Shown here: positions 25,831 to 28,321 of the stretch, piece by piece
Position numbering within the stretch: the stretch's first letter is position 1
Layout of the letters: each line of letters starts with the position of its first letter
Origin: Promethearchaeota archaeon
Lineage (GTDB): Archaea > Asgardarchaeota > Lokiarchaeia > Sigyniarchaeales > SOKP01
Assembly: GCA_048940925.1 (NCBI GenBank)
Contig: JBHLOC010000043.1
Span: forward strand, 1-40,533
Length of the DNA: 40,533 nucleotides
Reading direction: 5' to 3'
Program-made: the position numbers and the translations under genes
The notes under the pieces: model-generated
What the model was told of the DNA's origin: nothing
The model's database searches: none
The model's input: only the letters and a program-made list of their open reading frames with translations

Positions 25831-28113
25831 TTACGTGCGTTTATAAATAAAACGATCCCAGCTTTTTCTGTTCGGCAGTTCTAAAGGCATTTCCTTTCTT
25901 TTACGTATTTCTATTATTAAATCTTCTTCTAAAGAGGGAGGAACACGAGAAAAACCTTCAAATTCATATCCGAAAAAGGCACGGCCCTGAGTTGAACCTC
26001 TTATATCATCAGCAAGCCCAATAGTTTCAGCAGCAGGAATTTGACCTTGGATTCGTACATATTCACCTTCAGGGATGACATTAGTAATTCTACCTCTTCG
26101 TTTAGTTATGGTAGCAGTTACACTCCCTTCCGTGCCTTGCGGTGATTTTATGTCAATTCGTTGGATTGGTTCATAAAGGTGAGGATCTGCATCCAGCATC
26201 GCTAAGGACATAGCTGAGAAGATCATTCCTGCAATCTGCCCATATTGTGTATGTCGAGGGTCTTCATGTACTACAAGATCTGTAAATACAATTTTAAATC
26301 CAGTAGCAGGCTCTTTTGCTATAATACAATTACCAAGCCAATCCCTAAACGCTGCTGACATATAAGATTTAACTCTATCAAATCTTTGTAACCCAGCTGC
26401 TCCATTTACAAGCACACTTCCATGATATACATCCACCACACGTCTGGCTTCTTTTGCATCCCATCCCGCTTCTTCTCTAAGAATCATTGCTCTTTCCTTT
26501 TCATTTTGTAAATCATTAACTTTACCGATATTTATTAAATGTTCAGTAGTTTCATCTAATGGTTCAACATATAAGAGGATTCGATTGTGTGTATTCGCTG
26601 ATTTGGTATGATATTCTGGACTTCTTCGAGTGATTTTTTCTCTATAAATAATTATAGGTTCTCCTATTTTAATTTGAACTTGATTATTAATTCGTTTAGT
26701 AAGGATTTCTATTTGGAGAGGATCGATACCACTTAATATGAATTCACCGGATTCATCATCTCTTCGATATTCTGCTTCTGGATTTGCCTTAAGCCATTTT
26801 CCTACAACTTCATCTAATTTATCAATTTCATGGGGATCAGTGGGTTTGATACTTCGTGATACTACTGCCTCACAGGCATATTGAATTTTTTCGAAAGGAT
26901 GTAACAATTTCTTTTCTTCTTTATCCTTAGGGACCTCATTAGTCAACATAAATGTTTCACCAGCAGGGCAAACAAATCCAAATAATGCAAATAGATTTCC
27001 TGCAGGTATCTTAGGAATATCTAAAATATCAGTTATCTCCATTACTCCAAGTCTCTTCACTCGATTGCTTGAATCACTATTAATTAAATAAATAGAATCA
27101 GTTTGATCAAAAGTGCCTGAAAAAACACGACCTATAAGGGTAGCTTGGTAATTTCTTTTAGGATCCAAAAAGATCTTAGTAATCATCCCATAAAGTGGTC
27201 CATTTGGGTCGCTCTTCTGCAAAGATTGCCCAATTTCTGAGTTTAAATCACCACCCCAGATATGAGGGATTCTATATTTAGAAGCACTCACTGGATCTGG
27301 AAGATGGTCAACAATCATTCTTAACATAGGTTCATCTAATGGGAGATTATCTCTTAACCATTGAACATCTCCTTCATCATATTTTTCAAAAACATCTTGA
27401 GGTTTTAAATCCTTTTCAAGCAAGATCTCATATGTAAAACCCCATCCATGTTTTGCTGAACCCACGGCTACAGAATTTTTTGCAAAATCAATTCCCCAAT
27501 CCGATCCTTCGGGTCGCACCTTTTTTATAAGATCGTTTACTTCCCGTGTTATTTTATCTATTTTAGCAAAGGTATCCTGAGGGCTAAGTTTTAATTCACT
27601 TATTAATCTATCAACTTTATTAATGAACAAAACAGGTTTACACAATTCTTCTCCTACCGCTAAACGAATATTTGTTTCAGTTTGTGTCATTACTCCCTCG
27701 AGAGCGTCAACTAATATGATAGCACCGTCGCTTCCCCTAAGTGCTCTAGAAACTTCCCCTGTAAAGCTTATGTGACCAGGAGTGTCATTAAGTTGAATTA
27801 TATAGGGTTCATCATCTTCCGGGTGTCTAGGATCTTTAAATGCAAGAAGAACTACACTCGTGAATATAGTGATGCCGCGCTCCTGTTCCTCATCATTCAG
27901 TAGATTAAGGAAAACTTAATCTAAATCTGAATCAGTCATTTGGAGCTGACCAGCATCCTCAGGTCGCATTAGTCCCGCTCTACGAAGAAGGTAATCTGTA
28001 GCTGTGGTTTTTCCATGGTCGATGTGGGCTGTGATTGAAAACAAGCGCTTTTTTTCATAGGAACCGGTAGTTACCAGCTTAGCTATTTCTTCAGCATTTT
28101 TTACTTTAACCAT
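25831..28113 (-). CDS. fusA: Elongation factor 2 family GTPase (probably the aEF-2 paralog); join of exon 1 (27925..28113) and exon 2 (25831..27894), 750 aa after splicing
   Basis: Exon 1 carries G1 AHIDHGKTT. The same frame continues past a single TAA with EEQERGITI, DTPGHISFTGEVSRALRGSDGAIILVDALEGVMTQTE, NKVD, GSAKHGW, HLPDP, KSANTHNR, HEDPRH, EPIQ, IRKRK. The two ORF-track entries are parts of one gene. Confidence 0.93.
27895..27924 (-). other. 30-nt bulge-helix-bulge (archaeal tRNA-type) intron in the EF-2 coding sequence
   Basis: Minus strand reads UCAG[AU^U]UAGAUUAAG-UUUUC-CUUAAUCUA-CUGA[AU^G]AUGAG. It has a 4-bp central helix UCAG/CUGA, two 3-nt bulges and a perfect 9-bp intron stem, and contains an in-frame UAA. 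Excision restores the conserved motif spacing. Confidence 0.87.
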
Positions 28114-28321
28114 AGCAAGTCACTTTGATATAATTTTGATTAATTGAATTATTATATTTTAGGAAGAAAATATAGGAAATCATAAAAATTTTATTAATTT
28201 AAGCTATAAATCGCTATTTTTATTAGAATTTCTTAAGCTAATAAACTAGAAAACATTATTAGTATAGTTGCTTTTCAATGATTTGATTAAAATTTATTTT
28301 ATAATCCTCCTTTGAAATTAT

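Follow-up and report, generated by a model that had tools for sequence, protein, structure and literature searches.

Silent Codon Positions Probably Selected for Exon-Exon Pairing around a Predicted tRNA-Type Intron in an Asgard Archaeal Gene for Elongation Factor 2

Introduction

The splice sites of archaeal pre-tRNA and pre-rRNA are described as an hBHBh' motif (Marck and Grosjean 2003, as cited in the passages of PMC2738675), and long processing stems flank the bulge-helix-bulge (BHB) in precursors of 16S and 23S rRNA. A BHB intron in a protein-coding transcript is known from the cbf5 pre-mRNA of Crenarchaeota (Watanabe 2002; Yoshinari 2006; Yokobori 2009, PMC2738675). The passages of PMC2738675 treat flank conservation only as base pairing that maintains the cleavage motif, and the word "synonymous" is absent from them. 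In XBP1/HAC1 mRNA, a conformational RNA zipper promotes intron ejection, according to Peschek et al. (2015, PMC4687415). The subject of this paper is a predicted 30-nt tRNA-type intron in the gene of archaeal elongation factor 2 (aEF-2, below EF-2) of a Promethearchaeota archaeon (Asgardarchaeota; Lokiarchaeia; Sigyniarchaeales; SOKP01), together with the exon sequences that pair across it. The gene lies in contig JBHLOC010000043.1 of assembly GCA_048940925.1; "the window" denotes the whole stretch of DNA analyzed (40,533 nt, positions 1 to 40,533 of the forward strand).

It is probable that this gene carries a tRNA-type BHB intron and that silent sites of both adjoining exons are selected for a clamp which aids splicing. 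The clamp is a 5-bp stem in which GCUCC of exon 1 pairs with GGAGC of exon 2. This inner stem is real and most likely selected, while we infer its structure in vivo, the splicing of the intron and the aid of the clamp to cleavage or ligation.

The Intron and Its Host Gene

The host gene and the elements of the BHB are the following (all on the minus strand).

25831..28113, minus strand: aEF-2 host gene, 750 aa after removal of 27895-27924
27895..27924, minus strand: BHB mini-intron, 30 nt (inner helix h', its loop, the 3' strand of helix H and two bulge nucleotides)
27927..27930, minus strand: 5' strand UCAG (exon 1) of the central 4-bp helix H, which does not vary among 32 carriers and is 100% paired in them
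27897..27900, minus strand: central helix H, 3' strand CUGA (intron), pairs with UCAG
27924..27926, minus strand: bulge 1, AUU, predicted cut between 27925 and 27924
27894..27896, minus strand: bulge 2, AUG, predicted cut between 27895 and 27894
27923-27915 with 27909-27901, minus strand: inner helix h', 9 bp, closed by the UUUUC loop 27914-27910

The geometry of the BHB is canonical (3-nt bulge, 4-bp helix, 3-nt bulge). The predicted cuts were placed after the second bulge nucleotide, by the rule as restated in the passages of PMC2738675. Excision of 27924-27895 gives ...QMTDSD|DEEQERGITI, exon 2 beginning with GAU GAG, and this is the protein of intron-less orthologs of the same genus. The unspliced frame ends at the in-frame TAA 27918-27916 (minus strand). 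Pattern scans of genome and metagenome collections brought the distinct carriers with both flanks to 32, and the in-frame UAA within the intron is invariant in all 32 when aligned. In h', 92.4% of their cells are paired, with double compensatory changes at two pairs (G-C to A-U in 5 sequences, U-A to A-U in 8).

The intron was seen in DNA of independent samples (contigs from four runs), and none of the contigs of this organism among them joins across it. An independent assembly of the same organism (run X9) differs by a C>G change at 27921 (plus strand), which breaks one h' pair with the partner unchanged. In run X5, the intron is missing from a contig of a related organism, in which the two exons meet exactly at 27925. 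A search for RNA runs covering 27500-28200 listed none. No other copy of the intron core was found in this genome within 3 mismatches, so the core is not a multi-copy repeat here. A search of 27600-28250 against Rfam gave no match at E<=1.

The genome is 4.8 Mb long with ~28% G+C. The host protein contains the Pfam domains GTP_EFTU, EFG_III, EFG_IV and EFG_C, is intact outside the intron and is 85-93% identical to its relatives. It looks like the main EF-2 of the lineage with an altered diphthamide site, judging from the sequence: the diphthamide-loop His is kept (window 26233-26268), and HEDPRHTQYGQ stands in place of the usual HxDxxHRG. The sole other EF-2-like gene of the genome (G000:C86:42547-44739, or L170:248-2440) encodes 730 aa, is 31% identical to the intron host and is devoid of any diphthamide-loop His motif. 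An essential translation factor of this archaeon would appear to be makeable only via the predicted tRNA-type splicing.

Exon-Exon Pairing at This Locus

Three pairings between the exons surround the BHB.

27951..27957, minus strand: outer exon-exon stem, 5' strand GAUGCUG (codons GAU GCU G-)
27871..27877, minus strand: outer exon-exon stem, 3' strand CGGCAUC (codons -C GGC AUC)
27942..27946, minus strand: inner stem (clamp), 5' strand GCUCC (codons CAG CUC C-)
27879..27883, minus strand: inner stem (clamp), 3' strand GGAGC (codons CAG GAG C-)
27931..27935, minus strand: outer BHB helix h, 5' strand CUGAU, 4 of 5 pairs with 27893-27889
27889..27893, minus strand: outer BHB helix h, 3' strand AUGAG, one G.G mismatch against CUGAU

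All three had been proposed in a preliminary description made from the sequence alone, and each was recovered at these minus-strand coordinates: GAUGCUG/CGGCAUC as 7 bp with one G.U, GCUCC/GGAGC as 5 bp, and CUGAU/AUGAG (27935-27931 with 27893-27889) as four of five possible pairs. The exon-exon pairs number ~17 in total. RNAfold places both exon-exon stems within the minimum free energy (MFE) structure of a 146-nt piece and likewise of a 93-nt piece. Of seven flank lengths tried, six (45, 60, 80, 100, 150 and 189 nt) give these stems pair probabilities of 0.88-0.99, those of the outer stem being 0.88-0.95 in most contexts.

Dinucleotide shuffling (z=-3.4 for 93 nt) is a poor null for coding sequence and was replaced by synonymous resampling, in which the protein is kept and the codons are redrawn from this gene's own usage. 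Under this null, the exon-exon duplex reaches -19.0 kcal/mol against -5.3 +/- 2.4 kcal/mol, and none of 3000 resamples is as good; folding is therefore better than in codon-shuffled controls encoding the same protein. The MFE of 114 nt is likewise extreme (p=0.011), as is the number of exon-exon pairs in the MFE structure (17 versus 3.2, p=0.015). By exact enumeration under the gene's own codon usage, the probability of GCUCC is 0.019, that of GGAGC anywhere in D-E-E-Q-E-R is 0.038, and that of a complete outer stem (7/7) is 0.029; the inner stem as a whole has a chance of 7e-4. The codons of the stems had been described as ending in G or C in a genome where most do not, and the counts bear this out: G+C at third codon positions (GC3) reaches 0.70 for the 10 codons of the stems, compared with 0.23 for all 750 codons of the gene.

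The pairing also affects the predicted presentation of the splice sites. With flanks of +/-60, 99 and 150 nt, the canonical BHB has a predicted probability of ~0.13 in the native sequence and ~0.02 in synonymous variants (p<=0.008), which is a ~6-8 fold increase in predicted occupancy.

Two other readings of these letters were considered and rejected. A K-turn formed by GCUCC-AAA-UGA with GA-GGAGC was discarded by eye, as a U follows the 3-nt loop where G-A is needed; the relevant letters are also fixed by the protein. An internal Shine-Dalgarno-like role of GAGGAG was discarded because no start codon follows and the matching GCUCC would be left unexplained.

Association of the Clamp with the Intron

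For the comparison with relatives, 129 family orthologs were fetched and aligned, and 124 rows were kept for a gene tree built without the intron region. A 30-nt insert at this site is present in 21 of the 124 rows, across three genera. L009, whose contig ends just upstream of the intron, also carries it and stands outside these rows. The intron state is scattered over the tree, and at least 16-17 gains or losses are needed to explain it.

Both stems could be cleanly scored in 123 orthologs (20 carriers and 103 non-carriers). GCUCC and GGAGC are both present in 18/20 carriers and 4/103 non-carriers, which means that intron-less orthologs mostly do not share the codons of the inner stem. The mean energy of the exon-flank duplex is -15.6 kcal/mol in carriers versus -7.8 kcal/mol in non-carriers. 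When carriers were paired with non-carriers in 16 phylogenetically independent contrasts, the clamp changed together with the intron in ~13, stayed the same in ~3 and opposed it in 0 (sign test p~2e-4); each half taken singly is also associated (GCUCC p~0.001, GGAGC p~0.006). The control silent sites, ACN and an upstream GGN, gave no intron association in the independent contrasts. Synonymous resampling repeated across carriers was significant at p<=0.05 in 18/19 and at p<=0.01 in 15/19. In the larger set of 32 carriers, both clamp halves occupy the usual register in 29, the inner stem is 95.6% paired, and RNAalifold recovers the inner stem together with H and h'.

Constraint on Silent Sites and Shift of Register

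Silent-site variation is reduced specifically at the paired positions of the inner stem; the outer stem has no such reduction. CAG is used by 30/32 carriers versus 22/100 non-carriers, and CUC by 31/32 versus 26/100. Third-position entropy (bits, carriers/non-carriers) is 0.34/0.97 for CAG, 0.20/1.72 for CUC, and 0.45/0.87 and 0.34/0.99 for the two GAG codons. The four-fold site of the ACN codon, which lies between GCUCC and the intron, remains variable (1.57 in carriers, 1.88 in non-carriers). GCUCC is situated 17-21 nt upstream of the intron and ACN only 9 nt. The major alleles at the two four-fold sites in carriers, CUC in 31/32 and ACC in 17/32, differ with p=8e-5 (Fisher). Since the h' arms and the loop have diverged with compensation, neutral sites in the flanks had time to diverge too.

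In all other carriers, GGAGC lies 6 nt nearer to the intron than it does in this genome. The sisters L002, L044 and L156 read GAG GAG CAA GAA, and this genome reads GAG GAA CAG GAG; by three silent changes relative to them, the usual GGAGC was lost and a new one formed 6 nt downstream. A displacement of another kind is seen in L066 and L118, where a homologous intron is located 6 nt upstream, after ACA GAU rather than UCA GAU, with ACAG/CUGU as helix H. It apparently slid along the GAU-UCA-GAU repeat, to judge from these letters. Both retain the GCUCC/GGAGC clamp with mirror-image loop sizes.

Some silent preferences of carriers are unexplained by the proposed helices. CAA after CUC (window 27940-27942) is used by 27/32 carriers and 57/100 non-carriers. 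Exon 2 begins with GAC (window 27892-27894, where this genome reads GAU) in 18/32 carriers versus 10/100 non-carriers, and this codon weakens helix h.

The Outer Stem and Helix h

The 7-bp outer stem is complete in 5/21 carriers versus 1/103 non-carriers, with a mean of 5.5 versus 4.75 pairs out of 7 (uncontrolled p=0.01). As a family-wide feature, it was rejected by the independent contrasts (p~0.45). It is not included in the RNAalifold consensus of the 32 carriers, 24 of which miss its outermost pair, and the conserved residues D-A-G and R-G-I prescribe much of its sequence. For CUGAU/AUGAG, the codons ACU and GAU are needed; in most carriers another ACN codon and GAC stand there, and the pairing is specific to this genome. 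Directly adjoining the bulges, helix h has four of its five pairs here and at most 1-2 in most other carriers, and the distal clamp may stand in for it. The internal loop between the clamp and the BHB is asymmetric and measures 11 x 4 nt in most carriers and 6 x 5 nt here. The long, near-continuous hairpin of this genome is a local elaboration of a conserved 5-bp core.

The preliminary description had claimed that silent sites were selected to build an extended hairpin. This is supported for the inner GCUCC/GGAGC stem (independent contrasts, frozen sites, RNAalifold, BHB occupancy), but not for the outer 7-bp stem or for the genome-specific CUGAU/AUGAG. A second claim, that the pairing marks an established intron rather than a recent insertion, is likewise supported for the inner stem. 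The clampless carriers L061 and L159 fit young introns, with imported flanks in the case of L061.

Splicing Enzymes and Proposed Mechanism

The genome encodes two EndA paralogs (PF01974/PF02778 proteins of 198 and 200 aa) and one RtcB. By reading of the sequences, the catalytic Tyr/His/Lys positions are all present in one EndA paralog; from the other, the Tyr and the His are missing. A 2026 preprint (10.64898/2026.10.13.758758) reports two EndA paralogs in most Asgard genomes, consistent with an (alpha-beta)2 arrangement, and the pair encoded here appears to fit this arrangement.

The following sequence of events could be proposed. The EF-2 pre-mRNA would carry the 30-nt tRNA-type intron in a canonical BHB, and silent positions would be shaped for pairing between the two exons immediately beyond this motif. 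In most carriers, the helix adjoining bulge 2 is predicted to be weak (1-2 pairs), and the clamp would close the open side at a distance. In this genome, the clamp, shifted 6 nt outward, would stack on the 7-bp outer helix and leave room for the local 4-of-5 helix h. With the outer side closed, both 3-nt bulges could be presented to an EndA of the (alpha-beta)2 type. After cleavage by EndA, base pairing alone (~12-17 exon-exon pairs) would hold the mRNA halves. The clamp would thereby act as the mRNA counterpart of the tRNA body, which serves tRNA halves, and could enable joining by RtcB. If so, mRNA splicing by EndA and RtcB would have a concrete requirement: the exons have to be held and the BHB presented.

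Alternative Explanations

Several results count against selection of the clamp for splicing, or limit its extent. Splicing and formation of the stem in vivo are predictions from DNA sequence and folding. The contrasts rest on the tree of a locally recombining gene, and their independence is imperfect. No pair in either exon-exon stem changes on both sides among the 32 carriers: the inner stem is almost invariant, which leaves no classical covariation, and true covariation cannot be shown because the protein dictates one partner in nearly every exon pair. What compensation there is consists of the 6-nt shift of GGAGC in this genome and the differing clamp sequences at a second intron site. L061 and L159 carry the intron without both halves, so that the clamp is not indispensable, and L058 keeps four of the five clamp pairs. 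In most carriers the distance between GGAGC and the splice site is only 5-9 nt, and at least in L056 this half looks imported together with the intron. The outer stem, as said above, fails as a family-wide feature. With dinucleotide shuffles of the 146-nt piece, z=-1.3 is not significant. With flanks of +/-120 nt, a competing fold lowers the stem pair probabilities to 0.12-0.17, and the gain in BHB occupancy is small (p=0.043) because that cut favors the competing fold. This fold may, as modeled, be an artefact of the cut position or real.

As regards the competing fold itself, the prediction for flanks of exactly 120 nt has the clamp's 3' strand pairing with CACUCCUGGU instead, ~100 nt downstream (window 27880-27771 region).

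The association could be explained by the descent of a mobile cassette, if the intron spread laterally by homologous recombination together with tracts of donor exon. The intron clearly appears, from the sequences compared, to move laterally, and some carriers gained it in this way. The L056 intron is identical in 30/30 positions to those of L017 and L050, the host genes being ~75% identical, and L024, a 90.6%-identical sister of L056, is intron-less and has four silent differences within the four codons that follow the splice site. The intron is also missing from L063, a 96.6%-identical sister of L061 with a locally mosaic flank. The L061 intron shares the loop and the 3' arm with the intron of this window (host genes 73% identical), and beside it stands the Ser codon UCA where the clade has AGC; this switch needs several substitutions and points to import of the immediate flank. 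The changes of intron state on the tree, at least 16, also speak for such spread. However, a tract that reaches GCUCC must include ACN, which is variable in carriers even as CUC is kept in 31/32, and neutral flanks should have diverged as the intron loops and h' arms did. The intron was acquired or retained by L061 and L159 in the absence of the clamp, GGAGC was rebuilt at a new position in this genome, and clamps of different sequences occur at a second intron site (see below). Part of the association, especially that of GGAGC, may come from short donor exon tracts travelling with the intron; as the explanation of the whole, hitch-hiking is unlikely. Somewhat more doubtful still is selection of the stem for another role, such as a block to ribosomes that would otherwise make the 65-residue stub, a switch of EF-2 splicing or protection from nucleases. 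The in-frame UAA, invariant in 32/32 aligned carriers, and the location of the stem 150-240 nt into the open reading frame could be cited for it, and transcription and translation can be coupled in archaea. No finding favors such a role over splicing, although the two are not exclusive. The stem hugs the BHB, survives the 6-nt slide of the intron and raises the predicted BHB occupancy, and splicing fits these properties more directly.

It is very improbable that the pairing is a coincidence, with the self-complementarity of the RNA an accident of the peptide D-A-G-Q-L ... E-Q-E-R-G-I and the G/C-ending codons due to ordinary local codon bias. The outer stem does agree with this: it is largely residue-dictated, non-carriers average 4.75 of its 7 pairs, and its completeness has a chance of 0.029. 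The GC3 of the 20-codon region (0.45) is also within the top 6% of sliding windows only. The inner stem does not agree. Its chance is 7e-4, intron-less orthologs with the same peptide have it in 4/103, resampling is significant in 18/19 carriers, and the independent contrasts give p~2e-4. Coincidence is thus largely refuted for the inner stem and viable for the outer one. That the 30-nt insert is not a spliced intron at all, but has for example inactivated a gene now in decay or serves translational recoding, is barely credible; the flanking pairing would then play no part in splicing. This reading draws on the fact that splicing is here a prediction from DNA, and is opposed by the canonical geometry, the covarying h' and the cuts that yield the exact intron-less protein. 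The rest of the gene is intact, at 85-93% protein identity to relatives; the sole other EF-2-like gene is 31% identical and without the diphthamide-loop His, and EndA and RtcB are present. Selection of the inner clamp for splicing of the EF-2 intron is therefore retained as the probable explanation.

Comparison with Known Systems

The EF-2 element resembles the hBHBh' motif, as described in the passages of PMC2738675, in the two 3-nt bulges on opposite strands of a 4-bp helix, the predicted cuts after the second bulge nucleotide, a partial outer helix (4 of 5 pairs here) formed by the sequences to be joined, and EndA and RtcB as the presumed enzymes. Unlike in that motif, the outer helices of EF-2 are coding on both strands and can be built from silent positions only, and the conserved element is the distal 5-bp clamp rather than the helix adjoining the bulge.

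With cbf5 it has in common, on the evidence of the same passages, a tRNA-type intron in an archaeal coding sequence with a patchy distribution, gain and loss. Cleavage of the cbf5 intron by a hetero-oligomeric EndA, at BHB motifs of relaxed or canonical form, would be a further likeness. The gene, the phylum and the intron size are different, and the scatter of the EF-2 intron, with at least 16 changes within a single family, is much greater.

The likeness to XBP1/HAC1 is in the way of working, and no homology is implied. A short intron leaves a coding mRNA via a non-spliceosomal endonuclease there too, and RtcB joins the exons of human XBP1; with RtcB common to both, the parallel with the exon zipper is notable. 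Neither the endonuclease, IRE1, nor its substrate, a twin stem-loop, is related to the elements described here, and the system belongs to a regulated stress response of eukaryotes. The zipper of XBP1 is reported to work through exon-exon pairing that keeps the halves together for ligation.

In the literature searched, tRNA-type introns in archaeal coding sequences are documented for essentially one gene, cbf5, and the only Asgard intron work found concerns tRNA genes. No report of BHB introns in Asgard protein-coding genes was found by these searches, which is not proof of novelty. What is distinct here is that both strands of the pairing are coding, that a distal clamp is conserved, and that the dependence on the intron is shown by many independent contrasts.

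The clamp gives sequence-level evidence for a functional, established intron, and its presence or relic offers a marker of intron gain and loss. Splicing appears to influence which codons are chosen, so that codon usage in these genomes is under a second layer of selection. A general rule can be put forward only tentatively, as possible but short of probable: in Asgard coding genes with tRNA-type introns, clamps selected at silent sites once an intron has arrived would replace the tRNA body in presenting the BHB and holding the cut halves for RtcB, the unclamped introns of L061 and L159 would be young, and the clamps in the intron-less genes of L087, L095/L096 and L053 would be footprints of recent loss. 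If this is true, codon choice would record the gain-and-loss history of a mobile family of mRNA introns in the closest prokaryotic relatives of eukaryotes.

Further Intron Sites in EF-2

A second intron site of EF-2, AH|IDHGK in the G1 GTP-binding motif, is occupied in L002 (3700-3810, minus strand), L046, L053 and L057; L002 is the closest relative of this genome. The intron is again 30 nt long and has the same 1+9+5+9+4+2 architecture, with GCGC/GCGU as helix H and AU|C and AA|A as bulges. Three of the four carriers have 7-9 bp exon-exon helices, each of different sequence, and the duplex energy of these three is -11.6 to -15.5 kcal/mol versus -5.4 +/- 2.7 kcal/mol in non-carriers.

Other inserts are found in the G1 (P-loop) region: 31 nt in L084 and about as long in L114 (both at about codon 32), and 30 nt in L124 (about codon 34). 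With these two additional positions, the intron sites of the family come to at least four over a span of 35 codons, and two introns occur together in L084. In L058, a 177-nt insertion in the G domain of EF-2, at about codon 212, splits the tblastn match.

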